The notes: a model not told the origin generated them from the letters alone. Shown: positions 2,603 through 42,574, counted from the stretch's first letter. The stretch: DNA of 64,000 nucleotides from Spirochaetota bacterium (GCA_043803405.1 JAZDKB010000036.1:64001-128000), one strand, 5' to 3'. A program made the numbers and translations.

Positions 2603-3535
2603 CTATTCAGCTTCAGTCGCCACAGGCGTCGTTGCTTCTATGTAATCAAAAGCAGCACTTACATCATCCGCGTTCTTTGCCTGTGTAGGGATCACGTCTG
2701 CAAACTTGACCAGATCGGCATCGCGGAGCAAAGGCATAAGCTTCCTGTCGCTATCATCCTTTATTTTGCGCGCTATTTCCTCTGTGGTCAGCTCAACCGC
2801 AGGGAAGCCCCTCAGCTTTTCAATGTACTGCCGCAGTATTTCCGAGTATCTGAAATAAAATTCCTTATACTGTCCTTTGGTTATATGGTTCATGGAAATC
2901 AGTCTTTCAAGTTCTTCCTTTGCAGTGACGTGCGGCGGCTTGATTTCCTTCAATGCTTCCATATCCCTGCGCTTTCTTTTTCTGAAAAAATAAATGCCTG
3001 CCCCTATTGCTCCCAGAATTATAATTCCGATCAGCCACGGAAGCAGTCTTAAAATAAAAGGATAAGTAGGCATAATATCCATTATAGGCTTAAGCTGCGC
3101 TTCTGCAGGCTTATCGCCAAGGTTGGATTGCACCTCAATTTTTATTGCCTCAGTCTTGACTATATTCAGCACGCCTTTGCCGTCTTTAAAAGAAAGGCTT
3201 ACAGGTTTTATCTCAAACGGCTCCGGCTTATCAATTATGATACTTAATATAATGCTGTTTTTTATTGACTTCTTCCCTACAATTGCAAGGCCTTCTATCC
3301 CAGTTATATCGGATTCTGATACTGTAACGCCTGCAGGCACACTGTAGCTCAATGTAAGATTTATAATATCTCCGACGCGAACTTTGTCGAGGTCAACCGA
3401 AGCAGTTATTTTAGGATAATTACCGGGCGCATTTTTGTTTTCAGTGTTCTTTGGCACGTCCTCGGTTTTTTTGCCGCATGCAATAAAGAGCAGAACAGCA
3501 ATTACCGCAAAGGCAGCAAGCATACGCTTTGTCAT
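2603..3535 (-). CDS. Membrane-anchored lipoprotein of MoxR/Bat-type operons (DUF4381/BatD-like)
   Basis: Lipobox LFIAC, beta-rich N domain, TM helix followed by RKRKRR, C-terminal LRQYIE..G..AVELTTEE..ADLVKFA. Overlaps the DUF58 stop (ATGA). Confidence 0.75.
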   Translation of the reverse strand: MTKRMLAAFAVIAVLLFIACGKKTEDVPKNTENKNAPGNYPKITASVDLDKVRVGDIINLTLSYSVPAGVTVSESDITGIEGLAIVGKKSIKNSIILSIIIDKPEPFEIKPVSLSFKDGKGVLNIVKTEAIKIEVQSNLGDKPAEAQLKPIMDIMPTYPFILRLLPWLIGIIILGAIGAGIYFFRKRKRRDMEALKEIKPPHVTAKEELERLISMNHITKGQYKEFYFRYSEILRQYIEKLRGFPAVELTTEEIARKIKDDSDRKLMPLLRDADLVKFADVIPTQAKNADDVSAAFDYIEATTPVATEAE

Positions 3536-15947: not shown

Positions 15948-16079
15948 TGCTGCTTCACGGTCATTCTACCTTTGTCTCACGATCATAGTGATGCTATGAC
16001 CGTGAGGTAGAGTTGCTGCCTCACGGTCACTCTAATGCTACCTCAGTGAGGTAGTAATGCTTTCTCACTGAGGTTTTAT
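15948..16079. repeat. Six tandem 22-bp quasi-palindromic units
   Basis: Units start at 15948, 15970, 15992, 16014, 16036 and 16058; core CCTCACGGTCA or its reverse complement TGACCGTGAGG. Confidence 0.75.
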
Positions 16080-16204: not shown

Positions 16205-17677
16205 ATGAACGAATACAAAGAAAATAATGTCCTGATCATAGGCTCCGGCATTGGCGGGCTCTCGTGCGGTATAATTCTTTTAAAGCTCGGTTATAATGTA
16301 ACTGTAATCGAAAAAAACAAAGAGCCCGGCGGCATGATGCGCAGCTACAGGCGCCTCGGTATTGAATGCCCGGTCGGCGTGCACTACTTGGGATCGCTGG
16401 ATAACAACCAGGTTCTCCGCCGGATATTCGATTATCTTGGCGTTACATCAAAGATTCAACTGGAACGAATGGGCGTTAATGCGCCAATAGACAAATACAT
16501 TTTCGACGACTTTGCATTTGATCTGCCTTCAGGAATAGACGAGTACGAAAATGCTCTGCTGGAAAAGTTTCCTGATGACAGGAAAGCGATTATAGAAATA
16601 ATGAGCGGCGTAAGAAAGATCGCGTCCATAATGCAAACCCTCGAGTTTATTTCAGGAAGCAGCAATGAGTCTTCAATATTTACATCGTTCGAGTTTTTCG
16701 ATTCAATGGGCGATCTTGTTTCAAAACTAAACTGCTCCAGGAACCTGTGCAGCGTGCTCGAAGTCCCTTGCACATGGATAGGCCTTTCATTAAAAGAGTG
16801 CCCTGTGTTTTATCATTATAATGTTCTTTCGTCTTACCTGTTTTCAGCATGGAGACTTAAATGCAGCGGAGCTGATATGGCAAATGCGTTCGCCGGCAGG
16901 TTTAAAGAGCTTGGAGGAAAAATAATTCTCGGAGATATGGTCGAGAAGATTCTTACAAAGGACCGCGTTGCTGAAGGTATAAGGCTTAAATCCGGACTGG
17001 AGATGAAAAGCAGTATTATTATCGCAGCTGTGCATCCGAAAACAATGCTCGCAATTTTACAGGAGGGATCTGTCAAGCCTGCTTATTCGAAAAGAATAAG
17101 CCAGATTGAAGATACGGACGGAATGTTTTCGGTTCAGCTTGGAGTGGACTCGAAAGCCAGCGAAGAACTGCCTTATAATATCTTCAGGCTGAGAGCGAAT
17201 AAAGAGGGCTCATTATCAAAAGGAGCTTTTTTTCAGCTTAGGAAATCCGAAAAGCCGGATATGAATCTCTTAACTATTATTTCGACCAGTAAATATTCTG
17301 AATGGCAAAAATGGGAAACCACTATAAGCGGAAAAAGAGGGAATGACTATCTTGATAAAAAAGGAATAATAGCTGAAGAATTAATAAACATTGCATCCGG
17401 TTGCATCGGCCCGTTTAAGGGGCAGAAAATTCTGGATACTTACTCGCCGCTCACTATACGGGACTGGGCAGCAAGCCCGTGCGGTTCGGCGTACGGCGTT
17501 CTGCGCTCCAAGGAACAGCTTTTAAAAACAGCGCTTCTTAACAGGACTTCTGTTAAGGGGCTATATCTTGCAGGCCAAAGCGTTCTTGCTCCCGGCATTC
17601 TTGGAACAGCGCTCGGGTCACTGGTGACTGTAAAAGACATAGTAGGAAGCGAGGCATTTAAAGCAGTTATTTTATGA
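16205..17677 (+). CDS. Phytoene desaturase/retinol saturase-like FAD-dependent oxidoreductase
   Basis: IIGSGIGGL Rossmann motif, EKNKEPGG, GVHYLG, SPLT..DW....GSAYG, GLYLAGQ....PGILG. Confidence 0.88.
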   Translation: MNEYKENNVLIIGSGIGGLSCGIILLKLGYNVTVIEKNKEPGGMMRSYRRLGIECPVGVHYLGSLDNNQVLRRIFDYLGVTSKIQLERMGVNAPIDKYIFDDFAFDLPSGIDEYENALLEKFPDDRKAIIEIMSGVRKIASIMQTLEFISGSSNESSIFTSFEFFDSMGDLVSKLNCSRNLCSVLEVPCTWIGLSLKECPVFYHYNVLSSYLFSAWRLKCSGADMANAFAGRFKELGGKIILGDMVEKILTKDRVAEGIRLKSGLEMKSSIIIAAVHPKTMLAILQEGSVKPAYSKRISQIEDTDGMFSVQLGVDSKASEELPYNIFRLRANKEGSLSKGAFFQLRKSEKPDMNLLTIISTSKYSEWQKWETTISGKRGNDYLDKKGIIAEELINIASGCIGPFKGQKILDTYSPLTIRDWAASPCGSAYGVLRSKEQLLKTALLNRTSVKGLYLAGQSVLAPGILGTALGSLVTVKDIVGSEAFKAVIL

Positions 17678-19023
17678 AAATCCTTCTTATATCCGCAAAT
17701 AAACTAAAAAGCCCGTACCCTGTTTATCCGCTCGGACTAGACTATGTCTCTGGTTCTGTTTCGCAAAAACATATTGTAAAAATAATAGACCTTAATGAAT
17801 TTGAGGATATTAATTCAGCCGGCATTACAGTTAAAGACTTTCCTGCTGACATTATAGGAATATCCTTAAGGAACGTGGATAATACTGATACAGGTGACCT
17901 CAAATATTTTCTTGATCAATACAGGAATCTAATCAGCAGTATAAGAAAGAATTCAAAAGCATTGATTGTGCTTGGCGGCAGCGCGTTCACTATTTTTCCT
18001 TCGGAGTTTATGCAGGCTCTGGATGCGGACTATGGAATTATCGGAGAGGGTGAACGGTTCGGCTTTCTGGCAGATGCGCTGGAAGAAAAAAAAGATCCGC
18101 TTGAAATTCACGGCGTAATTGCAAAGAATTCGGTAGCGAAGATACCGCAGCCGTGGCCCGAATCAATAATAAGAAAATTTAATACGAATAATTCATATAT
18201 CAATTATTATCTTAACAAGGGCGGGATGCTCAATCTCCAGACAAAGAGAGGCTGCTCTTTTAAATGCATATACTGCACGTATCCGCATATTGAGGGGAGC
18301 AGCCTGAGGCTGTTCCCGCCAGGCGAGATCGCAAAGACTGCTCTGGAACTCGAAAAAGCAGGTGCTAAATACTTATTCATTACTGACTCTGCGTTTAACT
18401 GCAGCTATGCTCACAGCACGGAAGTGGCCAACGCATTTATAAAGGCAGGATTGTCCATTCCATGGGGCGCGTTCTTTGCCCCTACGCGCCCGCCTGCCGG
18501 TTATTATACCACGCTGGCAAAGGCAGGGCTTACGCACACGGAATTCGGCACTGAATCCATGTCGGATACCATGCTGCGAAGTTACAGGAAGCCTTTTAAT
18601 ACTGCGGACGTATTTCACGCTCACAAGCTTGCGCTCGATGCAGGGCTCCATGTTGCGCACTACTTTTTATTCGGAGGCCCGGGCGAGAACAGCGCGACCC
18701 TTGATGAGTCCCTAGCCAACATTGAAAGATTATCAAAGGCAGTGTTCTTCATGTTCTGCGGCATGAGGATTTATCCGCATACGGAGCTTTATGAGATCGC
18801 AAAAAAAGAAGGACAGTTAACAGAATCAATGTCATTGCTTGAACCGGTATTTTATAAATCAAATGCAATCTCTTCTGAAGATATAATAAAAGCAATAGAG
18901 GCCAGGGCAGGCGGCAGGCAGAACTGGGTAACAGGTTCGGGCAGCAAAAAAACATCCAGATTGATGAGCCGCATGTATAAGCACGGGCACACAGGCCCTT
19001 TATGGGAGCATTTGATACAATGA
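17674..19023 (+). CDS. Cobalamin-binding radical SAM protein (lipid-biosynthesis/ladderane-candidate type)
   Basis: PYPVYPLGL, GISLRNVDN, VLGGSAF, GEGE B12-binding region; QTKRGCSFKCIYC (CxxxCxxC); FGGPGE; RIYPHT. Confidence 0.9.
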   Translation: MKILLISANKLKSPYPVYPLGLDYVSGSVSQKHIVKIIDLNEFEDINSAGITVKDFPADIIGISLRNVDNTDTGDLKYFLDQYRNLISSIRKNSKALIVLGGSAFTIFPSEFMQALDADYGIIGEGERFGFLADALEEKKDPLEIHGVIAKNSVAKIPQPWPESIIRKFNTNNSYINYYLNKGGMLNLQTKRGCSFKCIYCTYPHIEGSSLRLFPPGEIAKTALELEKAGAKYLFITDSAFNCSYAHSTEVANAFIKAGLSIPWGAFFAPTRPPAGYYTTLAKAGLTHTEFGTESMSDTMLRSYRKPFNTADVFHAHKLALDAGLHVAHYFLFGGPGENSATLDESLANIERLSKAVFFMFCGMRIYPHTELYEIAKKEGQLTESMSLLEPVFYKSNAISSEDIIKAIEARAGGRQNWVTGSGSKKTSRLMSRMYKHGHTGPLWEHLIQ

Positions 19024-19817
19024 AGAAGCGGGATAACTTTACGTTTACTCCTTTTCACATTACAGGCATAATCGCAATACTACTCTCGGTCGTTCTTTTA
19101 TTTAAGAGCGCTATGCTTGCGCTTGCTCCCCTGGCTGTTTTCGCTCTGATCTGCGCAGTGGCGCCGTTCATGACAGGTTTCGGCTTTTTTCTGCCTGTGA
19201 TAAGCCGCGGGCTAGCCGGCAAAAACGCTGTTGCTCTCACATTTGACGACGGGCCTTCGGACGACGTTACACCTGCTGTGCTGAAGCTGCTATCGAAATA
19301 TTCTGCCAAAGCGACCTTCTTCGTAACAGGCGAAAACGCGTCCCGGCATCCGGAAATAATCAGAAAAATTCTTAAACAGGGACATTTAATCGGCAATCAT
19401 TCGTTTAAGCACGATCCGCTGCTTATGCTTCGGACAAGAAAGACGCTCTTTAACGAAATAAGCGAATGCCAGAATATCTTACAAAAATTTAAAATAACGC
19501 CCTGTGCATTCAGACCGCCCGCGGGGATAACGAATCCGAGGCTGCGCGGTGTCCTGGCAGAACTCGGTTTATTCTGCGTAAACTGGAGCTGCAGGGGATT
19601 CGATGCAGGGAACAGAAACGTAAAAGGCCTTTCGGATAAGATCCTCAAAAAGGTTAAGCCGGGCGACATTATTCTGCTTCACGACGTCAATCCGGGCAGC
19701 AGTGACAGCGAAAAAAAAATACTTGCCGAGTTTGAAAAATTGCTGAAAGGCCTTAGAAATTCAGGGCTTAATATTGTTCCGCTGCCGGAACTTATCGAAA
19801 AAGATGTGATGAAATAG
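19020..19817 (+). CDS. Membrane-anchored polysaccharide deacetylase (NodB family)
   Basis: ALTFDDGP, ATFF, GNHSFKH, FRPPAG, IILLHD; two N-terminal TM helices. Start set at the ATGA overlap. Confidence 0.9.
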   Translation: MKKRDNFTFTPFHITGIIAILLSVVLLFKSAMLALAPLAVFALICAVAPFMTGFGFFLPVISRGLAGKNAVALTFDDGPSDDVTPAVLKLLSKYSAKATFFVTGENASRHPEIIRKILKQGHLIGNHSFKHDPLLMLRTRKTLFNEISECQNILQKFKITPCAFRPPAGITNPRLRGVLAELGLFCVNWSCRGFDAGNRNVKGLSDKILKKVKPGDIILLHDVNPGSSDSEKKILAEFEKLLKGLRNSGLNIVPLPELIEKDVMK

Positions 19818-19956
19818 GCTCTTGCATATAAAAGCAGGTATAGACTTGTCTTTTTTTTACTTGACATTATTTGTTATGCGGAAATATTGTTAAGTTTACT
19901 TTTTATTGAACAAATTAAAAAATAATGTCATTTAATAGCCGGTTTAACAGTAAAGT

Positions 19957-20328
19957 ATGAATGACTGGTATTCGCTTTCAAATTTGCAATTAGACTCTGG
20001 GAAAAATATTTCAGCAAATGCCGTAGTGCCTGCAGATTCGCCATGGTTTTCCGGGCATTTTCCCGGACAGCCTATATTGCCGGGTATTGCAGAATTGTCG
20101 ATTGTTTTCGATTTACTAAAAAAAAATCATAATATTACTGGAAATAAGAATAATTTAATTATATTATCTTTAAAGAAGGTCAGGTTTAAAGTTCTCGTTA
20201 AACCGGAAGAATTGCTTAATATTAAAGTTATTCAGGTTGAGAATTCAGCAAATACCTATTCATTTAAAATAACTGCTGCTAATAAATTAACCTGTTCAGG
20301 CACTATCGCAGTAACAGAAACCAGCTAA
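19957..20328 (+). CDS. Hotdog-fold 3-hydroxyacyl-ACP dehydratase (FabA/FabZ/ApeI-like)
   Basis: SPWFSGHFPGQPILPGIAEL, VRFKVLVKP. Confidence 0.85.
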   Translation: MNDWYSLSNLQLDSGKNISANAVVPADSPWFSGHFPGQPILPGIAELSIVFDLLKKNHNITGNKNNLIILSLKKVRFKVLVKPEELLNIKVIQVENSANTYSFKITAANKLTCSGTIAVTETS

Positions 20329-20373
20329 AACATTTAAATGGCAGACCGATTTGTCCGAAATGGAGGAAAATTA

Positions 20374-20643
20374 ATGGCAAAAACTATTGAAGCAAAAGAT
20401 ATTATTTTAAAGACAGCAGAAATAATTATCAATGAATTGAAACTGGAAGATATTACAGCCGAGACATTTGACCCGGATCTTGACCTTGTTGATGAACTCG
20501 GAATTGACAGCATGGATCTTACTACTGTTGCGCTTGTGCTTCAGGATGAGTATAATATTACCATTGATGAAGACGACTATCCGACTTTAAAGACAGTACG
20601 GTTAATATCAGATTATATTCAGAAAGAACTTAAGAGTAAATAA
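20374..20643 (+). CDS. Acyl carrier protein
   Basis: ELGIDSMDL phosphopantetheine site, acidic, GGAGG RBS before ATG 20374. Confidence 0.92.
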   Translation: MAKTIEAKDIILKTAEIIINELKLEDITAETFDPDLDLVDELGIDSMDLTTVALVLQDEYNITIDEDDYPTLKTVRLISDYIQKELKSK

Positions 20644-20650
20644 TTTATAT

Positions 20651-21769
20651 ATGATTCAAGCAGGCAAAAAAATAGACGCCCTTGATTTATCAGCCCTGAT
20701 AAATAAAGGCTGCGCTCTTAAAAAAAACAAATGGAAATTCTCCGATCTTATAGCTGATCCGACTATTCGCGATAGATGGGAAAAAGTAAAAAAATATTTC
20801 TTTCTCCGCGAAACCACTTACGATATGAGCAACCGCTGTAATCTGAAATGCGACGGATGCTATTACTATGAGGGCGACAAGCAGTTCACTGAAGAGAACA
20901 GGGACCCGGAAGCATGGCGCGCCCTTATGCGCGAAGAAAAAGCCCGCGGAATAACATACGTGGTACTTGCGGGCGCTGAGCCGTCGCTTTCGCCTGAGCT
21001 TTTAAAAGTGTGCTATGAAGAAATACCGCTCGGGAGCATAGCGACGAACGGCTTTAAGCGCATTCCCGAAGAAGTCGATTACATGATACATATATCAGTA
21101 TGGGGAAATGACAAAACAACGGCAAGGATACGCGGCGCCGAAAACCTGTTAAAAAAGCAAATCCAGAATTACAAAGGCGATCCAAGGGCTGTATTTGTTT
21201 ATACTTTCACAAAAGAGAACATAAACGAAGTCTATGAAGTAATAAATATAATATCGGAAAATAACTGCAAAATAACATTTAACATGTTTTCATCTCCTGT
21301 AGGCTATATGGGTGGCCTTCGTCATACAAAAGAGTCCCTGCTAAGAACAAGAAATGCAATGATAGACCTGTTAAAGAAGTATCCCGATAACGTGCTGTTC
21401 TCACCGTACAGCGCTGTTTCGCATACGCACGAAAAATCCCTGCATGATTTATTTAAATGTTCATATCCGAGAGTAAATTCGTCCACTGATATAGGACTGG
21501 GACGTTCGTTCAGGCAGTACAGGACAAATCTTTCGTGGGACAGAAGCGCGGCGTGCTGCGTGCCCGACACTGACTGCGACGACTGCAGGCATTACGCGTC
21601 CGGGAGCGCTGTAGTAACCGCAAGGCTTTACAGGCACGCGGTAAATCCGGAATCTTTTAAGTCATGGCTGGATTATGTTGACACTTATCTGTCGATCTGG
21701 GTCAGAGGCTACGAAAAAAGCAAAAATCTTTGCGATGTTCCTTACTCACCGCCTGGATTCGAATTATAA
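20651..21769 (+). CDS. Radical SAM protein (paralog 1)
   Basis: CNLKCDGC, AGAEP, IATNG, ISVWG, C-terminal CCVPDTDCDDC. Confidence 0.88.
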   Translation: MIQAGKKIDALDLSALINKGCALKKNKWKFSDLIADPTIRDRWEKVKKYFFLRETTYDMSNRCNLKCDGCYYYEGDKQFTEENRDPEAWRALMREEKARGITYVVLAGAEPSLSPELLKVCYEEIPLGSIATNGFKRIPEEVDYMIHISVWGNDKTTARIRGAENLLKKQIQNYKGDPRAVFVYTFTKENINEVYEVINIISENNCKITFNMFSSPVGYMGGLRHTKESLLRTRNAMIDLLKKYPDNVLFSPYSAVSHTHEKSLHDLFKCSYPRVNSSTDIGLGRSFRQYRTNLSWDRSAACCVPDTDCDDCRHYASGSAVVTARLYRHAVNPESFKSWLDYVDTYLSIWVRGYEKSKNLCDVPYSPPGFEL

Positions 21770-21804
21770 CACACAATCATTTATTTTTATTTTAGGAAAG
21801 GTTA

Positions 21805-22803
21805 ATGGAAACAGTCAGCTCACTATTGGATAAGGAATGGCTGCAAAGATATAAGAATATATCGAAACTCAATATACGCAGTTCCATTTATGATGTTACA
21901 AACCAGTGCAATCTGCGATGCAAGGGCTGTTTCTTTTTTTCATCTGATGAGCACAAGAGGGGTCAGGAAGAAAAAGATTTAAATAAATGGGAACAGTTCA
22001 TTGATAATGAGATAAAACGCGGAGTTAATCTCGCGATTCTGATAGGCGGAGAGCCGACGCTGTACCTTGACAGGGTCGAAGCATTTTACAAAAGGGTGCC
22101 TACATACTGCGCTACAAACGGCATTATTAAAGTTCCGCGCGACCGCTTTCCCGACATGATGATCGGGATATCCCTGTGGGGCGATGAAGAAGACGAAAAA
22201 GTCCTGAGGGGCAAAAACGCTTTTGCTATCTCCAGGAAAAATTATGAAGGCGATCCTCATACATACTATTTGTATACCATCACTCCAAAACAGGTTGGGC
22301 ATACAGAGCGCGTAATAAAGAAAATAAAAGATGCCGGATTAAAAGTACATCTGCAGCTTTTATCCAATGATGAAGATGTTGACGGATTCCACTGGACTGA
22401 GGATCAGCTAAAGGATATATGCATTGAAATGGACGCAATGCTTGACAAATATCCTGAAACAATCATTTCCAGCAAGTATTATCATAAAATCATAACAACA
22501 GGAATAATGATGGGACGTCCTTTCGGCTGGAAAGAATGCCCTTCAGTGACAGAACCGCTCGACAAACGCAATCCCAGACCAAAAAGGCTTATCCATTTCA
22601 TACGCTGGGCATCGGATCTGAAAACCATGCACAGATGCTGCACGTCCGAAACAAGGGATTGCACAACATGCAAAGACGGGGCAGCGCACATGAGCTGGGT
22701 AATGGTCAACAAAAGAGAACACATTAAAACAAAAGAAGATCTCCAGAACTGGATTGAAGTTTACGAGATGTTCGCGAAATTATACCAGTTCATTCCCTGG
22801 TGA
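21805..22803 (+). CDS. Radical SAM protein (paralog 2)
   Basis: CNLRCKGC, IGGEP, CATNG, ISLWG, C-terminal CCTSETRDCTTC. Confidence 0.88.
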   Translation: METVSSLLDKEWLQRYKNISKLNIRSSIYDVTNQCNLRCKGCFFFSSDEHKRGQEEKDLNKWEQFIDNEIKRGVNLAILIGGEPTLYLDRVEAFYKRVPTYCATNGIIKVPRDRFPDMMIGISLWGDEEDEKVLRGKNAFAISRKNYEGDPHTYYLYTITPKQVGHTERVIKKIKDAGLKVHLQLLSNDEDVDGFHWTEDQLKDICIEMDAMLDKYPETIISSKYYHKIITTGIMMGRPFGWKECPSVTEPLDKRNPRPKRLIHFIRWASDLKTMHRCCTSETRDCTTCKDGAAHMSWVMVNKREHIKTKEDLQNWIEVYEMFAKLYQFIPW

Positions 22804-22807
22804 CCTC

Positions 22808-22957
22808 ATGAGACTGTCTCATAATAAAAAATTTGCCACAGAGGCACAAAGGATATTTACTTAAATAAAGCTGTTTTATTAATATTTTAAACAATTCATT
22901 AAAATAATTGTTAAACTCTGTGCCTCAGTGTCTCAGTGGCATTCTTTTGAGACAATC
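22808..22957. repeat. Nested intergenic inverted-repeat element
   Basis: Palindrome ATGAGACTGTCTCAT (22808-22822); TGCCACAGAGGCACAAAG pairs with CTCTGTGCCTCAGTGTCTCAGTGGCA (22916-22941); outer pair GACTGTCTCA/TGAGACAATC. Confidence 0.7.
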
Positions 22958-23002
22958 CCCAGGGAGTGAGGTTCAAAACATACTTTTAGTATTAAATAAA
23001 AA

Positions 23003-24262
23003 TTGGCAAAAGAACGAAACAAACAGGCAGTAATACTGGGATACGATACTGTATCGCCTCTCGGAACAGATTTCCAAATCCAATGGAAGCGCGCTGTTAA
23101 CGGAGAATGCGGTATAAAGGAACTTACTCGCTTTCCGCTACGTGAAGGTTTCCCGGTTAAAATTGCCGGACAGGTTGATGAAATTGACTGCACGCCTTAT
23201 CCGTTTTTAAGCCCCCGGGAGCTGGCCAACTGGACTTCTCCGATATTCAAATATGCAATGCTGGTTGTGCACAGAGCGCTTGTAAAAAGCGGAATAGAAA
23301 TAACACCTGAATTATCCCCGAGAATCGGCATTACCTTCAGCTCTGCTGTAGGCGGCCTTGATGCAGTTATTAATGCTGACAGATTATTAAACGCGAAAAA
23401 CAAACTGCCTCATCCGTTTACAAATCCGAATTCATGCATAAATATGGTAGGCGGAAAAGTATCTATATTAACAAAAGCCACAGGTCCGATTGTCTCAACC
23501 GTTACCGCGTGCGCTACAGGATGCACATCCATGATTATAGGCTCAATGATGATTGAGCAGGGAATGGCGGATGCTGTTATATGCGGAGCTGTAGATTTCT
23601 CGCTGGTTGAACCTATTGTCGGGGGCTTTGCTTCGATGAACGGCACATACAGCCCCAAAAAAGGCCAGCCTCATGAAGCGCCGGAAAAGACAAGCCGTCC
23701 ATTTTCAATTAACAGAAGGGGATTCGTAATAAGCGAAGGAGCGGGGTCGGTAATAATTGCGTCCAGGGAATTTGCAGAATCGCACGGTCTTAAATATAAT
23801 ATTGCAATATCCGGTTACAGCATGACATCTGATGCGCATCATTTTGTGGCGCCTAATTATGAAACAGTTAAAAGATGCATTGCCCAGTCTATAGAAAATG
23901 CCGGACTTAAACCGCAGGATATTTCTGCCGTAAACGCGCATGCAACATCTACCAAAATAGGCGATACGGTTGAAGTTAAAGCTTTAACCGATGTTTTTAG
24001 CGGCAAAATACCGCCGGCTTCAGGAAACAAATCGCAGATAGGGCATTGCATGGGTGCTTCAAGCGCAATCGAGGCTATTTTTGCCATGGAAGGTATGATG
24101 CGCTATACATTGCTTCCTACAATAAACTATACGCCCGATCCTGAACTTGTTATCGACTGCGTACCGGAGGGCGCGAGGCACGCTGAACAGGAATTTGTGC
24201 TAAAAAACGCGTTCGGGTTCGGCGGATGCAATTCATGCCTTGTTTTTCAAAGAGAAAATTAA
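23003..24262 (+). CDS. fabF: Beta-ketoacyl-ACP synthase II-like (KS 1)
   Basis: TACATG (Cys), NAHATST, KSQIGH, SRPF..R.GFVISEGAG, NAFGFGG; TTG start. Confidence 0.9.
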   Translation: MAKERNKQAVILGYDTVSPLGTDFQIQWKRAVNGECGIKELTRFPLREGFPVKIAGQVDEIDCTPYPFLSPRELANWTSPIFKYAMLVVHRALVKSGIEITPELSPRIGITFSSAVGGLDAVINADRLLNAKNKLPHPFTNPNSCINMVGGKVSILTKATGPIVSTVTACATGCTSMIIGSMMIEQGMADAVICGAVDFSLVEPIVGGFASMNGTYSPKKGQPHEAPEKTSRPFSINRRGFVISEGAGSVIIASREFAESHGLKYNIAISGYSMTSDAHHFVAPNYETVKRCIAQSIENAGLKPQDISAVNAHATSTKIGDTVEVKALTDVFSGKIPPASGNKSQIGHCMGASSAIEAIFAMEGMMRYTLLPTINYTPDPELVIDCVPEGARHAEQEFVLKNAFGFGGCNSCLVFQREN

Positions 24263-24265
24263 TTT

Positions 24266-24464
24266 ACCACAGATGGACACAGATTAAACAAGTTATTAAA
24301 AATTTTGATAAAAGGATATTTTTTAGTTTTAAAAAAATTATTTTCCTTTACTTACTTTATTTCTTTTATTTTTATATCTTCAAATGTGTATAATATTATA
24401 CTTTTCGAATAATTTTTTTTAAAATTTGAGACATAATTATAATTTTTCTGTGTAAATCTGTGGT
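24266..24464. repeat. Inverted-repeat-bounded AT-rich element between the two fabF genes
   Basis: ACCACAGATGGACACAGA (24266-24283) versus TCTGTGTAAATCTGTGGT (24447-24464), 16/18 inverted match. Confidence 0.7.
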
Positions 24465-24473
24465 TAAACAATT

Positions 24474-25739
24474 ATGAAGGCACCAAAGAACAGACGCGTA
24501 TTCGTTATCGGATACGAAGTCATAACTCCGCTCGGAAAAACTTTTAAAGAGACCTGGAACAGGGCTGTAAAATCGGAAGCCGGTTTCAGGAAGCTTACCA
24601 AGTTTAATGTGCAGTCGGATTGCAACGTGGTCGGGGAAATACCGGATTGGAATCCTGCAGAATTTAATTTTGTAGATGAAAAAGAAATATATAACTGGAA
24701 CGCTGCTTTTATTATTTTAACAATGGCAGTATGCAAGGCAGCGCTCGAAAATTCCGGGCTTGAGATTAATAAGATAACGAGTCCGAGAACCGCCTGTTTA
24801 ATATCATCCTGTATTAATGGACATGATGCATACCGTATTGCAATGGACAGCCTTCTTAACAAAGGGCCATTAAAAGTGAGTCCTTATTTGCTTCCGAACA
24901 TGTGCGGAAATCTGCCGGGTGGAAAATCAAGCATGCTTCTGGGCTTTACGGGTCCCATATTTTCACCGCAGGGCGCATGCGCTTCGGGCAACCATTCAAT
25001 CGGACTCGGAGCCCGTATGATAAGGGATGGAGACTGCGACTTTGCAATAGTGGGCGGAGCTGACACTCCTATCCTTCCGGAAATAATTCACGGATTCGAC
25101 AACATGAATGCCACCTTAAAGGTGCGGCCAAAAGACCGCGCTTACGATGATCCGGCTCAGGCCTCCAGGCCGTTCAGCGGTGACAGAAAGGGCTTTATAC
25201 TGTCCGAGGGCGCAGGGGCGCTTGTACTTGCTGCCGAGGAGATGCTCACGACTTATGGTTTAAAACCGAAAGCTGAAGTGCTCGGCATAGGCTGGACATC
25301 GGACGCGTATCATTTTACAACGCCGAATAAAGACAGCATTGTCCGCTGCATAAACGAAGCAATTGATGACGCGGCTTTAAAACCTGAGGACATCCAGTAT
25401 GTAAATGCCCACGGCACGTCAACGCAGACGGGAGACAGAAGCGAGGTCGAATGCCTTCAAAGAGTGTTCGGTAAACACCTTGCTCACATGCCGGTATCCT
25501 CAAACAAATCCCAGCTTGGCCATACGCTTGCGGGTTGCGCTGCAATAGAAGCTGCGCTTACAATAGAAGGAATGCAAAAAGGAATAATCCTGCCGACCAT
25601 TAATCATATACCTGACCCTAAGATAGAGAACATTGACGTGGTTCCCAACACACCGCGCAAACAAAATTTTGAGCTTGCGCTTTCCAATGCATTCGGCTTT
25701 GGCGGCACCAACTGCTGCGTCATATTCAGGGGAGTTTAG
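24474..25739 (+). CDS. fabF: Beta-ketoacyl-ACP synthase II-like (KS 2)
   Basis: GACASG (Cys), NAHGTST, KSQLGH, SRPFSGDRKGFILSEGAG, NAFGFGGTN. Confidence 0.9.
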   Translation: MKAPKNRRVFVIGYEVITPLGKTFKETWNRAVKSEAGFRKLTKFNVQSDCNVVGEIPDWNPAEFNFVDEKEIYNWNAAFIILTMAVCKAALENSGLEINKITSPRTACLISSCINGHDAYRIAMDSLLNKGPLKVSPYLLPNMCGNLPGGKSSMLLGFTGPIFSPQGACASGNHSIGLGARMIRDGDCDFAIVGGADTPILPEIIHGFDNMNATLKVRPKDRAYDDPAQASRPFSGDRKGFILSEGAGALVLAAEEMLTTYGLKPKAEVLGIGWTSDAYHFTTPNKDSIVRCINEAIDDAALKPEDIQYVNAHGTSTQTGDRSEVECLQRVFGKHLAHMPVSSNKSQLGHTLAGCAAIEAALTIEGMQKGIILPTINHIPDPKIENIDVVPNTPRKQNFELALSNAFGFGGTNCCVIFRGV

Positions 25740-25740
25740 A

Positions 25741-26229
25741 ATGAAGCCGAAGCCTTTTATTGCAAAGATATATAATAATGACGAACGTTATGTGAAAGAA
25801 GAGTCAACCGGCCTCATCTGGCACAGATGCAGCCACCGCACGCTGTACGCTGATACTGACCGGTCGTCCGTGGTTTATCATTCCAATTATCTGCGCTATT
25901 TCGAGCAGGGACGCGCTACCCTTATGCGCGATAACGTGTACCCGTATTATGAAATAGAAGAAAGCGGGTACGTATATCCGATCATTGAAACTGGGATCAA
26001 ATACTTCAGGCCTCTTCGTTATGATGACCTGATGTGGATTCATACAAGGCCGGATATGATAGAACGCGTTAAGCTGCAGTTCGAATATTTAATAACTCAT
26101 ACCGAAACCGGCGAAATCGTCTGCACCGGTTTCACCCGTCATTGCGCTTCCAATAAATCCGGCAAACCTGTCGCAATAGATCCCAAAACGGTTGAGCTAT
26201 GGAAAAACTTCCCAATAATCCGGAAATGA
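25741..26229 (+). CDS. 4HBT/YbgC-family acyl-CoA/ACP thioesterase
   Basis: YADTD...VVYHSNYLRYFEQGR, KYFRPLRYDD; ATG 25741 directly after the fabF stop. Confidence 0.9.
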   Translation: MKPKPFIAKIYNNDERYVKEESTGLIWHRCSHRTLYADTDRSSVVYHSNYLRYFEQGRATLMRDNVYPYYEIEESGYVYPIIETGIKYFRPLRYDDLMWIHTRPDMIERVKLQFEYLITHTETGEIVCTGFTRHCASNKSGKPVAIDPKTVELWKNFPIIRK

Positions 26230-27710
26230 CCGGGAAACAAAGTATTCAAATCGAAATACCAATCTATCCGTTCATGAAAGATCACAGATTTTCCGGCAGA
26301 ATTGTTATCCCTGCTGTGGAATTATGCCAGGTACTTGCTCTGGAAATAAAAAAGCATATACCGGATATAAATAATCAAATAATATATAATGCTTCATTCG
26401 ATAAATTTATTGATATCAATGGTGATGAGAAAATAACTGCACTTAACGAAATTAAATCTTATGAGGACGGCACGTTTGTATCAAAACTATTAACAAAGAC
26501 AAAAACAAGATCCGGCATAATCCGCACCAATGAACATGTATCAATGGACTTCAGAAAGGACGCTCTGCCATTTAAAGAATTAACTTACGATGTCGCTTCT
26601 GCGCTTGACGGCTTGTGTTTGCGGGTGCAGCCACAGGAAATCTACAGCGAGCTTGTGCCGTTCGGCCCGGCTTATCATAATGTCACAGGCGACCTGTATG
26701 TGGCGGACAGCGGAGCTGCTGCCTGCATAGTTGCACCGGCGGAGATGAGCCCCGGCCCGCTCGGGTCGCCTTTTGTTTTCGATGCTGCTTTGCACGCTGC
26801 CAGCGTATGGGCGCAGCGTTATCATAATACAACTGCTTTTCCGGTCGCGTTTTCCAAGCGGATCATACTAAAGCCGGCAGAGGCAGGCAAAAAATATTTT
26901 ACAAGGATTATTCCGGTACAGTCCGAAGCAAAAATATTTAAATTTGATATCTGGATTTACGATTACGAAGGCGTTCTTCGCGAGGCGGGGTTCGGCGTCT
27001 CATTCAGGGATGTAACCGGAGGCACATTACAGACTCCGGAATGGATAACTAAAAATAAAAATAATTTATTGTATGATATTTTATCGAAATGTGATGCGTT
27101 TTCGGTTGTTGAGCTGGATCAGATACCGGAGTTCGCCTCCAAAGCTCTCTCAATCGATGAACTTCGCAGGCTGGAACCCATGAGAGAGAAACGCAGAAAA
27201 AGTTACACAGGCGCAAGACTGGCATGTAAATTTCTTTCCAGGAAACTCTCCAAAGAAAGCTTTGATCTGCCCGCAGATAAAATCACAACTATCATAAATA
27301 ACATTTACCCTGCATGCCCGCTTCCGGACGGCAGCATGCCATACAAATGTACGGTTTCTCACGACAGCCGTTTCGCTGTTGCAGCAGCATCACGAAAGCG
27401 CATAGGCATTGATGTTGAAGAGATATCTGAGCGTGTTATAGAGCTAAGAAAATATTATATGAGCGAGGAAGAACAAAATCTTGTTGATTCTTCAGGTCTG
27501 GAAAAAAAGGCAGCATGCCTCAGGATCTGGTCAATTAAGGAAGCAGTAACAAAAGCTCTCGACATAGATCTAACCGGATCATGGAAAAGCGTGCAGGTAA
27601 TGGATATCGGTGAAAATATCACCAAATTTTTAATTAATAATATTGAAAATAATGCATACCACTGTACTATAGATAATCATATCTTTACGCTGGTTCAGTT
27701 CGGGGAATAA
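26226..27710 (+). CDS. Fusion: PKS-type double-hotdog dehydratase + Sfp-type 4'-phosphopantetheinyl transferase
   Basis: DHRFSGRIVIP (HxxxGxxxxP), FGPAYH, FDAALH; C-terminal TVSHD, IGIDVE, WSIKEAVTKA. Confidence 0.82.
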   Translation: MTGKQSIQIEIPIYPFMKDHRFSGRIVIPAVELCQVLALEIKKHIPDINNQIIYNASFDKFIDINGDEKITALNEIKSYEDGTFVSKLLTKTKTRSGIIRTNEHVSMDFRKDALPFKELTYDVASALDGLCLRVQPQEIYSELVPFGPAYHNVTGDLYVADSGAAACIVAPAEMSPGPLGSPFVFDAALHAASVWAQRYHNTTAFPVAFSKRIILKPAEAGKKYFTRIIPVQSEAKIFKFDIWIYDYEGVLREAGFGVSFRDVTGGTLQTPEWITKNKNNLLYDILSKCDAFSVVELDQIPEFASKALSIDELRRLEPMREKRRKSYTGARLACKFLSRKLSKESFDLPADKITTIINNIYPACPLPDGSMPYKCTVSHDSRFAVAAASRKRIGIDVEEISERVIELRKYYMSEEEQNLVDSSGLEKKAACLRIWSIKEAVTKALDIDLTGSWKSVQVMDIGENITKFLINNIENNAYHCTIDNHIFTLVQFGE

Positions 27711-28300
27711 TGTTGCAGGTTATCATTCTATTTATAGCTGCGTATCTGGCTGGTTCTGTTAATATAGCTATTCTGCTTTTTAAAATTATCGGCAAGGAAG
27801 ATCCGCGCAGCAAATTCAGCGGCAATGCTGGAACAGTAAACATTTACCGCCAGGCAGGGCTTTTCTGGGCAGCGGTTGTATTTATACTGGATTTCAGCAA
27901 AGCAATCGGGTTATCCGCGCTTTCTTTGCATCTGTTGGAACCGGAGTTCGCGCCGCTGATCTGCTTAGGGTTGCTTCTGGGAAACAGGTTCCCGTGCTTT
28001 CATGGTTTCCGCGGAGGAAAAGGAGTAGCGAACTTTCTCGGATTTACCGCAGTTATTACGCCGATATGGGCAGGGGCAGCTGCAGCTGTGTGGGTAATTG
28101 TTTACCTGATTGTGAAGACGCCTTTTATTGCATCGCTTTCAATGACGATTCTGTTGGCTATCGGGATTATAATAGCAAATCAATATAATCAGTTCTCTGC
28201 GGTAATCAGTATCCTGATAGTATTATTTATTATTTATAATCATAAAATAAATATTACTGAATTTAAAAAGAATTTTAAAAATCAGTCCAAATCTCCATAA
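27710..28300 (+). CDS. plsY: Glycerol-3-phosphate acyltransferase PlsY
   Basis: YLAGS, DPR...SGNAGTVN, DFSKA, FRGGKGVA, HKINI; multi-TM. Confidence 0.88.
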   Translation: MLQVIILFIAAYLAGSVNIAILLFKIIGKEDPRSKFSGNAGTVNIYRQAGLFWAAVVFILDFSKAIGLSALSLHLLEPEFAPLICLGLLLGNRFPCFHGFRGGKGVANFLGFTAVITPIWAGAAAAVWVIVYLIVKTPFIASLSMTILLAIGIIIANQYNQFSAVISILIVLFIIYNHKINITEFKKNFKNQSKSP

Positions 28301-28387
28301 CCGCAATAAGTCGGGATAATAATTATCCTGATTTATTCGCTAAGATAAGAGGTTTTGGAATGCAATAATGTTAAAGAAGAATGAGTT

Positions 28388-29779
28388 ATGAATAACAAAT
28401 TATTTATTATAATATTGATTTGTATCTTATCATTAATAACCAGCTTTGCGTATTTAGAAGAAAACACAAATGCTGAAAAACTGCCGAAAAACGCAAAATA
28501 CCTGCAGGAACCGGTGTTTAACAGTAAAATATATTTTTATGAATCAGACAACGAATTCAAAATAAATGTTATACTGGTACACGGCGTAGGCGATGACGCT
28601 TCGGATATATGGAAAGGCCTGGTCCCGGTGCTTGAAAAACAGTTTCATGTGATTTATTTTGATCTTCCGGGATTCGGAAGATCGGGAAAAGAAGATGCCC
28701 TTTATTCGCCGCAAAACTACGCAGCATTAATTAAATGGATCCGTGACCGGAACCCGGATAAACCGATGTACTTAATCGGGCACTCAATGGGCGGGGCTAT
28801 TTCGCTTTGTTATGCAGGCACATATCCACAAAGCTTACAGCGCCTCATACTTGTTGACGCAGCAGGCATTTTGCACAGAACGGCTTTTACAAAAAACCTC
28901 GCGGAAGCTAAAGTATCGGAACTGAGCAGAAATAAAATTTTCAGCGATGAACTGGATATATTAAGCCGCTTTATTGAGACCAGCTTATTAATGAACGAAA
29001 TGCAGCAGATACTTCCAAAGGATTTATCGCCTGTTCTTGAAAATTCTTTTTTAAGGCGAAAGCTTCTCAGCAGTCCGCAAAAAATAGCATCCGTATCTAT
29101 GATTTACAGTGATTTCAGCAAGCAGATTGAAAATATTAATGTTCCGTGTTTTATTATATGGGGCGGTAAAGATCCGATAGCGCCGCTAAGAACAGGCAAA
29201 ATGCTTGCCTCGAATATTCAGAACTCAAGTCTTTTTATAATGCCCGGGCTTGGCCATAACCCGATGATCGAACGTCCTGCCGAATTTAATAATCTTATCT
29301 TAAAAAGTCTAACTGCCGAATCCGTGCCAAATCAGGAAAAAAAATCACAATCTTTAAATATTAAATCCATCACACTCGACAACAGAGAAAACGTGATCAT
29401 TGAGGGTGATTATAAAGAAATTAAGATAAATAATTGCCGGAATATTTTAATAAAAAATACAAATGCCAGTGCAGTTAAAATAAAAAATTCGTGGGTTGAT
29501 ATGGAAAATATTTCTGTAAATTCCTCCGAAGTCGGCATGATTCTGGAAGAATCAATCATTGAAATTACCGGCGGTGTTATTTCCGGGGATACTGGGATTT
29601 CGGTTTCCGACAGCAAAGTCGATATCGCAGGAGTAAAAATAGAAGGGAAAAAGGCTGCAGTTTCATCAAGTTCAAAAAGCAATTCCACTATTGTTTTTTC
29701 AGTATGCAGAATCAGAAGCCCTTACAACAATAAAAATATTCATGATATTATTGAGATCACAAAGGAAAACTCATTATAA
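28388..29779 (+). CDS. Exported alpha/beta hydrolase with C-terminal beta-helix-like domain
   Basis: Signal/TM N terminus, LVHG, DLPGFGRS, GHSMGG, WGGKD, GHNPM; C-terminal I/N/S-rich beta repeats. Confidence 0.85.
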   Translation: MNNKLFIIILICILSLITSFAYLEENTNAEKLPKNAKYLQEPVFNSKIYFYESDNEFKINVILVHGVGDDASDIWKGLVPVLEKQFHVIYFDLPGFGRSGKEDALYSPQNYAALIKWIRDRNPDKPMYLIGHSMGGAISLCYAGTYPQSLQRLILVDAAGILHRTAFTKNLAEAKVSELSRNKIFSDELDILSRFIETSLLMNEMQQILPKDLSPVLENSFLRRKLLSSPQKIASVSMIYSDFSKQIENINVPCFIIWGGKDPIAPLRTGKMLASNIQNSSLFIMPGLGHNPMIERPAEFNNLILKSLTAESVPNQEKKSQSLNIKSITLDNRENVIIEGDYKEIKINNCRNILIKNTNASAVKIKNSWVDMENISVNSSEVGMILEESIIEITGGVISGDTGISVSDSKVDIAGVKIEGKKAAVSSSSKSNSTIVFSVCRIRSPYNNKNIHDIIEITKENSL

Positions 29780-40340: not shown

Positions 40341-41705
40341 TTATGATTTTAAAATAGATTCTATTTTCTGCCTGTCGTATTTCCCCGTTGATAAAATCGG
40401 CATTTTATCAACTATCTTGATCCTTCTTGGAAGCGCAAACGGTTCAAGAATTTCTTTTGCGGACTGTTTCAAACCTGGAAGATCAATGGTGCCTTCTACT
40501 ATTGCAGCGATCTCGTTCTCCCTCCCGCCGGACGCGGGCAATGCAATTGCAATAACGTCCGCAACTCCCGGAATCCGCTTCAGCTTGTTTTCGATCTCCC
40601 TCAGGTCAACGCGTTTGCCCGCAACCTTGACTATGCCGTCCGAACGCCCAAGATGCGCGAATGTGCTGTTATCAGCGCTCTCAATCCTGTCCTCTGTTGC
40701 AAAAAAGCCGTCTTTATCCTTTGGCAGATCGGGAGATGTGAACTCAGAACGGACACAAAGCCTGCTGTCCTGAATCTTCCACTCAATATTATCAAACGGA
40801 GCCCATTGCATCTCCTCGCCGGAGTTATGTCTTATTGCAATACCGCCTGTCTCCGTTGATCCGAATATTTCAGCCACCTTAATTCCGGTCTCATTAAAAA
40901 AATATTTTGCGTCGTTAATGTCCAGCGTTCCGGCCGATGAAATCGCTAATCTGAGCGAAGGAAAACTAAATGTGTTTCCTTTTAAAATCCTGTAATGGAT
41001 CGGAACGCTAACCAGCACTGTTGCCGAATATTTTTTTATTGATGATATAATTTCCTGAGGAAATGAAAATATGCCGGCAGTTGTCTTTGCAGAAGAAATA
41101 AACGGAACAATAACGGAATGAAGCAAACCGTAAATATGCTGGGGCGGGACTGTTGATATAAAAATGTCTTTTTCCGTAACATTAAAAGCGCTGGAATGAT
41201 ATAAAGCTTCGGAAAAAATATTTCGCGGTGTTTTCTGCCATATTTTCGGCTTGCCTGTAGAACCCCCTGTAAAAAGCTTTAGAAATACGGAATCCGGATC
41301 AAGCCGCTTTGAAAAATAATTTTCTCCGCTCTTTGCTTCCTCGATTTCGTCCGGTGTTAAAACTTTAAACCCGGACTGTTTTATTTCCGGCATATCACTC
41401 AGCACAAAGTCGAAGTTTTCCGAATCTTTCATTTCTGCTAAAATTGTTTTATTAAAAGAATGCGGAAGAAGCACGAGCGGACCTCCGCCGAGAGATGAAA
41501 GGAGCGCAGCAGCAATAAGAGCCTTGTTTTCAGTGCACAGGCAAAGTGTGCCGGTATTGAACTTTTGAGCAATATTAACTATTCCGCATGCCAGCCCGTA
41601 TATGCTTTTATACGAATTCCCTGATACAATAAATTCATCATCCGGATTATCCGGCCCGGAAAGCAGCTTTTTATAAAAAATTTCGAAATTTGTTTTTACT
41701 GTCAA
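40341..41705 (-). CDS. AMP-dependent acyl/aryl ligase (ApeH/XanA2-like)
   Basis: LFTGGSTGKPK, STVPPQHIYGL, FGSTETGG, TEDR, GRSD.IVKVAGKRV, TGKYD; TTG start. Confidence 0.85.
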   Translation of the reverse strand: MTVKTNFEIFYKKLLSGPDNPDDEFIVSGNSYKSIYGLACGIVNIAQKFNTGTLCLCTENKALIAAALLSSLGGGPLVLLPHSFNKTILAEMKDSENFDFVLSDMPEIKQSGFKVLTPDEIEEAKSGENYFSKRLDPDSVFLKLFTGGSTGKPKIWQKTPRNIFSEALYHSSAFNVTEKDIFISTVPPQHIYGLLHSVIVPFISSAKTTAGIFSFPQEIISSIKKYSATVLVSVPIHYRILKGNTFSFPSLRLAISSAGTLDINDAKYFFNETGIKVAEIFGSTETGGIAIRHNSGEEMQWAPFDNIEWKIQDSRLCVRSEFTSPDLPKDKDGFFATEDRIESADNSTFAHLGRSDGIVKVAGKRVDLREIENKLKRIPGVADVIAIALPASGGRENEIAAIVEGTIDLPGLKQSAKEILEPFALPRRIKIVDKMPILSTGKYDRQKIESILKS

Positions 41706-41737: not shown

Positions 41738-42574
41738 TCATATCTGGGCAATAAGCTTAGTCAGCACCTTGCCTGGACCTACCTCTTCAAACACAGGCTC
41801 CGGCTGCTGTTTTAAAAATCTGATAGTTTCAACCCATCTAACAGGATTGCATATCTGCGGAGCAAGAGTTTCTTTAATTGCATTATCCTCATATTTCTTT
41901 GCAGTATAGTTCGCTATAACAGGGATCTTGGGCGCTTTTAGAGTAAACTGGCCAAGGAATTTTTCAAACTCTTCTTTAGCCGGCTTCATATAGCGTGAAT
42001 GAAAAGCGCCGCTAACAGGCAAGGAAATAAAAAGCTTTGCCCCTGCTTTTTCAAAAACGCCTGTTAGTTTTTGAATATCCGCTTTAAGCCCTGATATAAC
42101 CGTCTGGCTTGGCGAATTATAGTTAGCAATATCTATCGTATTAATTCCCATATTAGTCAGCACTTCCTGGATCTTTTCCGGCTCAAGTCCGATCACTGCC
42201 GCCATGCCGCCGCCCTCGGCTTTTGCCATAATAGCGCCGCGCTTCTGCACCAGCTTTAATCCTGTAGCAAAATCGAACACTTCCGCTGCGAAAAGCGCAT
42301 TGTATTCTCCAAGGCTGTGCCCTGCTACAAAATCCGGTTTGCCCGACTGCTGCACTTTTTTAAGGTACGAAAGAGCGTTTATAACATATATAGCCGGCTG
42401 GGTATAATCTGTACTATTCAGCTTTTTGTTCGGATCTTCCAGGCACAATTGTTTGATCGAGTATCCCAGAATCGCGTCTGCCTGTTTTATTAAAAATGAA
42501 AACTTATCGAACAGCTCATTTCCCATGCCGAGAGCCTGCGATCCCTGCCCGGGAAAAACATATACCTTTGTCAT
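41738..42574 (-). CDS. fabD: ACP S-malonyltransferase (stand-alone FabD/trans-AT type)
   Basis: FPGQGSQ..GMG, TQPA, GHSLGEY, VSGAFHS, EVGPGKVL. Confidence 0.93.
   Translation of the reverse strand: MTKVYVFPGQGSQALGMGNELFDKFSFLIKQADAILGYSIKQLCLEDPNKKLNSTDYTQPAIYVINALSYLKKVQQSGKPDFVAGHSLGEYNALFAAEVFDFATGLKLVQKRGAIMAKAEGGGMAAVIGLEPEKIQEVLTNMGINTIDIANYNSPSQTVISGLKADIQKLTGVFEKAGAKLFISLPVSGAFHSRYMKPAKEEFEKFLGQFTLKAPKIPVIANYTAKKYEDNAIKETLAPQICNPVRWVETIRFLKQQPEPVFEEVGPGKVLTKLIAQI

Follow-up and report, generated by a model that had tools for sequence, protein, structure and literature searches.

What do the thirteen genes at positions 16,205 to 29,779 of a 64,000-nucleotide stretch of Spirochaetota DNA (GCA_043803405.1, JAZDKB010000036.1:64001-128000; the whole stretch is called the window here) build, and which of them belong together? 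A preliminary description had viewed them as a ladderane/aryl-polyene hybrid cluster for a membrane lipid modified by radical S-adenosylmethionine (SAM) enzymes. Comparison with related genomes showed that the conserved unit is smaller than the thirteen genes and the pathway larger. Its core, common to many anaerobes, is a conserved block for chain building within a dispersed aryl-polyene-type gene set. Among the type II lipid clusters of aryl-polyene/ladderane-like kind the locus is a real, conserved and widespread variant, distinguished by an unnamed radical SAM pair, RS2 and RS3. As for the product, we favour with moderate confidence a reading in which the block builds an acyl chain, the radical SAM pair remodels it, and a thioesterase, a fatty acid kinase (Fak) and PlsY place it at sn-1 of a glycophospholipid.

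Relatives of RS2 numbered 2028 among 8000 scored candidates, and at least 562 genome stretches encode one. The best 80 RS2 loci of these stretches, from Spirochaetota, Syntrophales/Smithella, Desulfobacterales, Myxococcota, SAR324 and Desulfogranum japonicum DSM 18378, were compared, denominators counting the loci long enough to tell; as these 80 are the closest relatives, conservation in the family at large is overstated. A seven-gene core emerged, in the order acyl carrier protein (ACP), RS2/RS3, ketosynthases KS1 and KS2, thioesterase and dehydratase, and this order was intact in 48 of 48 loci holding all seven genes (48 of the best 80), in Spirochaetota, Desulfobacterota, Myxococcota and SAR324. 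The core gene order is far beyond chance, and the check for conserved synteny suggested at the outset thus came out positive. In the window the core and the PlsY gene that follows it are:

20374..20643, + strand: ACP-A, carrier protein of the core module (PF00550; 76/78 loci; start placed at 20338 by the open reading frame (ORF) finder)
20651..21769, + strand: RS2, radical SAM enzyme of an unnamed family (CxxxCxGC and five C-terminal cysteines)
21805..22803, + strand: RS3, radical SAM enzyme and paralogue of RS2 (with RS2 in 78/78 loci)
23003..24262, + strand: KS1, ketosynthase with a Cys-His-His triad (70/72 loci)
24474..25739, + strand: KS2, ketosynthase with a Cys-His-His triad (62/69 loci)
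25741..26229, + strand: YbgC/4HBT-type hotdog thioesterase (TIGR00051 over cut-off; 56/63 loci; ORF finder start 25633)
26199..27710, + strand: polyketide synthase-type double-hotdog dehydratase (PS-DH) fused to a phosphopantetheinyl transferase (PPTase) (PF14765 and PF01648; 50/57 loci)
27710..28300, + strand: cluster-type PlsY (PF02660; 27/55 loci)

The starts at 20374 for ACP-A and 25741 for the thioesterase are the likelier ones, with ribosome-binding sites of GGAG type. KS1 and KS2 are 40% identical to each other and score 328 and 379 against the FabF equivalog TIGR03150, below its cut-off of 494. They are not an anammox-type pair of ketosynthase and chain-length factor (KS/CLF): both keep the Cys-His-His triad, and the KS-CLF, a fusion gene, lies apart on another contig, C10. 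PS-DH has conserved His and Asp motifs; the PPTase half of the fusion is not conserved across loci. FabK was not found in this genome, a FabV search gave no match there or in the controls, and an Acinetobacter baumannii FabI query returned only short-chain dehydrogenase/reductase matches of 25-30%. With ketosynthases, ketoreductase and dehydratase present and no enoyl reductase found by these searches, the chain is probably unsaturated. Several spirochaetes carry unrelated genes of 2.5-5 kb between KS1 and KS2 (loci L021, L026, L035, L060 and L080), and one assembly, G148, holds two separate cluster copies (L026, L060), by duplication or in a mixed bin.

Much of the remaining machinery lies on other contigs of the genome. 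Contig C10 carries a second carrier protein, ACP-B, and the 732-aa KS-CLF fusion, 48-63% identical to a gene upstream of the flavin adenine dinucleotide (FAD) oxidoreductase and B12 genes in ten loci. C18 encodes FabG, a second hotdog protein, LolA, a lipoprotein, a B12 radical SAM enzyme, an MMPL-methyltransferase, an LpxL-like acyltransferase, GT2, a second thioesterase (TE2), a FlxY/PaaK-like ligase and a DAK2-DegV fusion; C27 encodes an ACP, a ketosynthase and a PlsC-like enzyme, and C35 a further B12 radical SAM enzyme. Together with the window, C10, C18 and C27 contain the aryl polyene (ape) core set (two KS, CLF, ACPs, dehydratase, ketoreductase, MMPL). In relatives, FabG stands beside the core in 18/80 loci and KS-CLF in 26/80, and most of the dispersed genes form one contiguous cluster with the core in each of genomes G015 (D. 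japonicum), G062 and G228. The C18 FabG is 57-68% identical to the FabGs inside those 18 loci, so the ketoreductase is dedicated and not, as previously supposed, borrowed from housekeeping synthesis. An aryl-polyene-type cluster of A. baumannii, which we take to be an aryl-polyene producer, was also compared: 11 of its 18 proteins best-match dispersed accessory genes in this genome (the ApeO and ApeR labels rest on such matches), two match elsewhere, and five (membrane protein, LolA, FAD oxidoreductase, DUF3261, ApeP-like dehydratase) had no genome-wide match. The dedicated type II system proposed in the preliminary description is supported. A FabA-like gene (L025:4808-5404 and similar Smithella loci) precedes the cluster in 12/80 loci, in which no KS-CLF was seen within the fetched flank.

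The route from this system to the membrane is suggested by PlsY and by the DAK2-DegV protein of C18, a FakA-FakB fusion in one chain. Matches to the fusion were obtained in 52/52 carriers of the RS2/RS3 pair (in three through the DegV half alone and in four others partially), in 0/28 controls and in 1/63 further genomes, 61 of them having a TIGR04072 match without the pair; with one genome common to both control sets, this amounts to 1/90 non-carriers. Fak lies within 50 kb of RS2/RS3 in 28 of the 29 carriers that have both on one contig. Equivalents of Staphylococcus aureus FakA Asn32, Asp38, Asp40, Thr41 and Asn82 and of Cys240, His282 and His284 are kept in 7/7 aligned sequences, an invariant Arg was read as FakB Arg173 by motif, and the DegV domain is complete, with TIGR00762 over cut-off (FakA/FakB reference residues from the portion of PMC9136124 covered). 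PlsX was not found in this genome nor in 47 genomes of the order (0/47), and the window PlsY is the only one found in this genome. Cluster-type PlsY (at least 130 bits) occurs in 42/52 carriers and 0/28 others; it is present in each of the 35 carriers that lack PlsX, and PlsX is present in each of the ten that lack it. Judged from its domains, the fusion would supply acyl-phosphate without PlsX, as the earlier idea of a bypass anticipated, and Fak-PlsY is the probable exit route into a membrane lipid; a lipid end product via PlsY, also foreseen, is accordingly likely.

The same enzymes might serve the same glycolipid system differently, making an ordinary lyso-phosphatidic-acid scaffold from common fatty acids while the chain of the module goes to the sugar, to sn-2 or is released free. 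Consistent with this, Fak adjoins TE2, GT2 and the acyltransferases more often than the core, one genome (G380) has Fak without KS1, and in an order without detected PlsX, Fak and PlsY might be needed merely for the scaffold. However, PlsY stands downstream of the dehydratase on the same strand in 27/55 loci, and every one of the 17 PlsX-bearing carriers also retains Fak, pointing to a substrate beyond the reach of PlsX. We therefore regard such a scaffold role as unlikely, though it deserves real weight, and retain delivery of the module's own chain to sn-1.

RS2 and RS3 are paralogues of 26% identity, neither of which reached an NCBIfam cut-off. RS2 has the CxxxCxGC motif and invariant C-terminal cysteines 270, 302, 303, 309 and 312; in RS3, Cys 35, 39 and 42 as well as 245, 278, 279, 286 and 289 are invariant. 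Among 37 representatives the signature was CxxxCxGC in 35 and CC-x(n)-CxxC in 23. Five invariant C-terminal cysteines per paralogue and SPASM/twitch enzymes as nearest folds may indicate an auxiliary cluster; no SPASM Pfam match was obtained. The predicted RS2 model (pLDDT 74.5; residues 273-307 under 50) came nearest to SkfB (Z 14.1, root-mean-square deviation 4.8, 227 residues aligned), BlsE (13.7, 3.9, 253) and anSME (13.1, 3.9, 247), at 10-20% identity, and as these scores tie they indicate no function. Structure and sequence searches returned no close solved relatives of RS2, KS2, the ACP or the hotdog protein, HpnH-like (DUF3463) models turned up only at TM 0.69 in the Atlas, and prediction of an RS2-RS3 complex scored 0.00 in two runs without folded controls, which speaks neither for nor against one. 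In a tree of RS2 and RS3 (70 rows, quick mode, no outgroup) the spirochaete copies fell among the Desulfobacterota copies, and no donor was shown.

A profile search of the family gave 271 representatives at E <= 1e-10. Single-copy relatives (24-34% identity) adjoin PaaA-like di-iron and PaaI/MaoC genes in Alteromonas, Burkholderia and Tistrella, and ACP, TauD and non-ribosomal peptide synthetase (NRPS) genes in Methylomagnum. In one single sequence of 724 aa (P0134) a TubC_N docking domain (NRPS), a thioesterase and an RS2/RS3-family radical SAM domain are joined; in another single representative the family domain is fused to part of an AMP-binding domain; no RS2-RS3 fusion was seen among 37 long representatives (of 150 listed). 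These thioester-gene neighbours and fusions suggest that the substrates are tethered as thioesters. A cassette of PaaA-like di-iron, RS3-family radical SAM and MaoC/PaaI genes occurs at L081:11180-13535 (Alteromonas), L082:11246-13643 (Burkholderia) and L084:10581-15960 (Tistrella), and the Alteromonas copy adjoins a Tn3 element.

The other genes of the thirteen, and three minus-strand genes further on in the window, are:

16205..17677, + strand: FAD oxidoreductase, amine-oxidase/CrtI-like (phytoene-desaturase-like), accessory (8/63 loci)
17674..19023, + strand: B12-binding radical SAM enzyme, TIGR04072 (rSAM_ladder_B12), 392 bits against a cut-off of 360; common, not core (52/71 loci)
19002..19817, + strand: polysaccharide deacetylase with an N-terminal hydrophobic segment (PF01522; 44/74 loci)
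19957..20328, + strand: ApeI-like single hotdog dehydratase subunit (FabA/ApeI-like; PF07977/PF22818; 64/76 loci)
28388..29779, + strand: alpha/beta hydrolase (1/45 loci)
40341..41705, - strand: AMP-forming ligase, candidate starter-loading enzyme, adjoining or inside the cluster in relatives (5/80 loci)
41738..42574, - strand: FabD (TIGR00128 over cut-off), beside the cluster in L001
45616..47196, - strand: aromatic amino-acid ammonia-lyase (PF00221), possible aryl-starter source, weakly linked

The thirteen co-oriented plus-strand ORFs and their families were confirmed as first described, and neither a ketoreductase, an enoyl reductase nor PlsX is among them. The hydrolase, earlier counted as part of the pathway, is a local passenger and not a conserved part. 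Frequent overlap holds for four junctions (FAD/B12 enzyme, 4 nt; dehydratase/PlsY, 1 nt; B12 enzyme/deacetylase; thioesterase/dehydratase), but gaps of 139, 199, 211 and 87 nt also occur within the run. With these gaps and a sigma-70-like site at 19861-19890, weak by a scan that gave 53 sites against 35.5 in shuffles, one transcript for all thirteen genes is not certain. ApeI and ApeP divide the labour as dehydratase subunits, and the likely partner of the ApeI-like hotdog protein is the second hotdog gene on C18. The window protein also weakly matches the C-terminus of the acyl-CoA synthetase of the A. baumannii cluster, to which the AMP-forming ligase is the best match in the genome. No stand-alone malonyl transacylase other than FabD was found in the genome, and the deacetylase, by its family, would unmask an amino-sugar head group.

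Imperfect direct and inverted repeats of 20-44 nt lie ahead of the first gene, at 15948-16075; their core motif has one other match, on C7, and the repeats may be an operator or an element resembling repetitive extragenic palindromes (REP). A divergent seven-transmembrane (7TM)-PAS-LuxR one-component regulator, of which the genome holds at least three paralogues, lies at 14545-15792 (- strand), and a fusion of [FeFe]-hydrogenase-like and methyl-accepting chemotaxis domains, possibly an H2 sensor, at 7783-9708 (- strand). The LuxR gene and the hydantoinase, HDAC and enoyl-CoA hydratase genes flanking the cluster had no match in the 80 loci and are excluded from the pathway.

Three kinds of chemistry may be considered for RS2 and RS3. 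According to section 2.1 of PMC13459092, formation of an sp3 C-C bond by Tes needs two hydrogen abstractions, an analogy that would put ring or cross-link formation by two enzymes narrowly first. Oxidative C-C bond formation is accordingly a plausible assignment, if one held short of even confidence; desaturation or oxidation would be a slightly weaker candidate, and the making of a starter unit a doubtful one. In a fuller version of this last idea, the pair makes or alters a starter, aromatic or alicyclic, that is carried by ACP-A (or by CoA in thioester form), and KS1 and KS2 extend this starter to an omega-cyclic or omega-aryl chain. The position of the pair between the ACP and KS1 would suit such a role, as would the PaaA-like di-iron, Rieske and PaaI/MaoC genes beside the single-copy relatives and the presence of the ammonia-lyase and two ligases in the genome. 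Those relatives, however, are only distantly similar, an aryl starter could instead feed the KS-CLF arm, and the lyase is rarely linked to the cluster: a 35% homologue lies inside the G228 cluster, and none at 38% or more was found in the 80 loci. A starter-building pair extended in this way is quite improbable, and remodelling of the chain is preferred.

In an even sample of this spirochaete order, RS2 was present in 28/101 genomes. The pair occurred in 25/301 sampled Desulfobacterota genomes, with a distant single copy in one further genome, and TIGR04072 was over cut-off in 63/301, of which 18 carry the pair and 45 do not; the pair therefore marks a subtype of ladderane-like clusters. The same survey bears on the proposal that the cluster replaces housekeeping fatty-acid and phospholipid synthesis. 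This genome (94% complete) lacks FabF over cut-off, PlsX and FabK and has just this one PlsY, and 10/10 spirochaete carriers tested are without canonical FabF. Yet canonical FabF is kept in 35 of the 50 carrier genomes tested (50 of the 80 loci submitted), and in the order only 3/101 genomes have it, pair carriers or not, so that 70 of the 73 non-carriers live without either FabF or RS2. Replacement was rejected by this lineage control and is very improbable. The order as a whole is almost entirely without canonical FabF and PlsX. In genome G000 a canonical-looking acpP stands beside rnc without fab genes there, and G000:C4:115064-124462 encodes a 3132-aa PfaA-like type I synthase (two KS, AT, five ACP, KR) followed by a PPTase-like match, a candidate for bulk or polyunsaturated fatty-acid synthesis.

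The following pathway may be proposed for chain remodelling and delivery. ACP-A would be loaded by FabD and the ligase, and the chain elongated by KS1, KS2, the shared C18 FabG and PS-DH. RS2 and RS3, for which one auxiliary Fe-S cluster apiece is predicted, would then each abstract one hydrogen from the tethered chain, and the B12 radical SAM enzymes would C-methylate. The hotdog thioesterase would free the acid, the single-chain Fak phosphorylate it and PlsY acylate glycerol-3-phosphate; the chemistry of Fak and PlsY itself is established. The glycerol-phosphate-GalNAc aryl polyene lipid APEL has three chains, two from dedicated KS/ACP sets and the third plain, saturated and already on the lysolipid (bioRxiv 10.1101/2020.12.19.423268). 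Following the APEL proposal, the ApeR-like KS and the PlsC-like enzyme would add an sn-2 chain, and KS-CLF, ACP-B, GT2, the LpxL-like enzyme and the deacetylase an acylated amino-sugar; a third dedicated set ending in PlsY would fill the position of APEL's plain chain. Export of the glycophospholipid by MMPL/LolA is predicted.

Several points weigh against this proposal. Gene content, gene order, catalytic motifs and co-occurrence were observed directly, whereas product and activity are predicted from the genes, and the RS2 fold comparison yields no close relative suggesting a reaction. MMPL also occurs in 48/52 carriers; the whole gene set, MMPL included, travels together, and co-occurrence is therefore no specific link between Fak and this module. 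G380 has Fak and MMPL and no KS1 orthologue, Fak follows TE2, not the module thioesterase, in this genome and in G062, and cluster PlsY is missing in 10/25 Desulfobacterota carriers, D. japonicum included. The myxococcal loci L024 and L050 show only ACP-RS2-RS3-KS1 within the fetched flank, and the sampled genomes are related and mostly incomplete metagenome-assembled genomes, with hand-picked controls. A bolder extension, which we consider rather unlikely, would make RS2 and RS3 the founders of a radical SAM family acting on carrier-bound thioesters, whose paired abstractions would form rings or cross-links in a polyene chain anaerobically; the resulting lipid, ladderane-like or of a novel cyclic type, would be installed in the membrane by a one-piece Fak, in a sulfate reducer that can be cultured.

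Reports of ladderane-like clusters in bacteria other than anammox go back to 2009, with no product assigned in the portions of PMC2649909 and PMC9902471 covered. Among acyl lipids with a proposed radical SAM modification, the covered part of a 2026 review (PMC13459092) names just the ladderanes and the product of Jaw5. The present analysis defines a discrete, widespread cluster subtype and supplies its complete list of parts, a so far uncharacterised pair of radical SAM enzymes and a plausible membrane route. The type strain D. japonicum DSM 18378 carries the gene set in one locus, which, with the parts list, makes radical chemistry on acyl-ACP directly testable, and a lipid of this system might come to serve as a marker of sediment and digester syntrophs and sulfate reducers. 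The open-access literature (PMC, bioRxiv) gave no description of this module or of a fused kinase in such clusters and no lipid data for D. japonicum, and a search of sequencing runs listed no holder of RNA data.

Known systems resemble the locus in part (the comparison with published ladderane and aryl-polyene systems also drew on portions of PMC4790861 and PMC11968836). The candidate ladderane clusters of Kuenenia (kuste3603-3608, 3335-3352) and their Desulfotalea/Geobacter relatives share TIGR04072, a phytoene-desaturase-like enzyme, a deacetylase, several FabF and ACP, a ligase and a membrane transporter, the product being unproven in both (PMC2649909, portion covered). The first three of these features, together with a KS-CLF, could be read as a true ladderane pathway outside anammox bacteria. 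The FAD gene, however, is in just 8/63 loci, KS1 and KS2 both keep their triads, whereas in anammox Cluster I a single KS is paired with a CLF whose triad is dead (bioRxiv 10.64898/2026.05.19.726425, part covered), and D. psychrophila, with similar clusters, had no ladderanes according to the same portion of PMC2649909. By eye and without alignment, the start of kuste3342 resembles that of a B12 enzyme and the start of kuste3343 that of the SPASM gene L019:5500-6525, neither resembling RS2/RS3, and no RS2/RS3-type gene was recognised among the four listed radical SAM enzymes of Cluster I; neither Fak nor PlsY appears in the portion of its gene table covered. A true ladderane pathway is therefore most improbable. 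The hybrid label given at first holds as far as a link to both kinds of cluster goes, but the ladderane markers are not core: the B12 enzyme is in 52/71 loci, and most Desulfobacterota genomes with TIGR04072 are without the pair.

The ape/flexirubin clusters and APEL (Xenorhabdus doucetiae) have in common with the present set KS and CLF, a second ApeR-like KS, several ACPs, ApeI-like and second hotdog proteins, FabG, GT2, two acyltransferases, a thioesterase, MMPL, LolA, a ligase and an ammonia-lyase (gene list after bioRxiv 10.1101/2020.12.19.423268 and PMC8253772, portions covered). Extra here are ACP-A, RS2/RS3, the two triad-intact KS, the polyketide-type dehydratase, PlsY, the single-chain Fak and several B12 radical SAM enzymes; KS and CLF are fused, the genes are spread over at least five contigs and the hosts are anaerobic. 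RS2 and RS3 share with SkfB, BlsE, anSME and the lipid couplers Tes and Mss a radical SAM barrel and a C-terminal Cys set for a putative auxiliary cluster, but differ in their identity of at most 20-23%, a distinct signature and a tandem paralogue pair (Tes profile NF045702, 25.5 against a cut-off of 450; PDB profile match to 7TOL only at E 0.0025). Firmicute FakA/FakB with PlsY, finally, show the same FakA_N and FakA_L catalytic residues and full DegV/FakB domain. In contrast to these, the present enzyme is one polypeptide with FakB in place of FakA_C, occurs in Gram-negative hosts and lies inside a biosynthetic cluster, and, so embedded, likely serves a self-made acid rather than scavenging.

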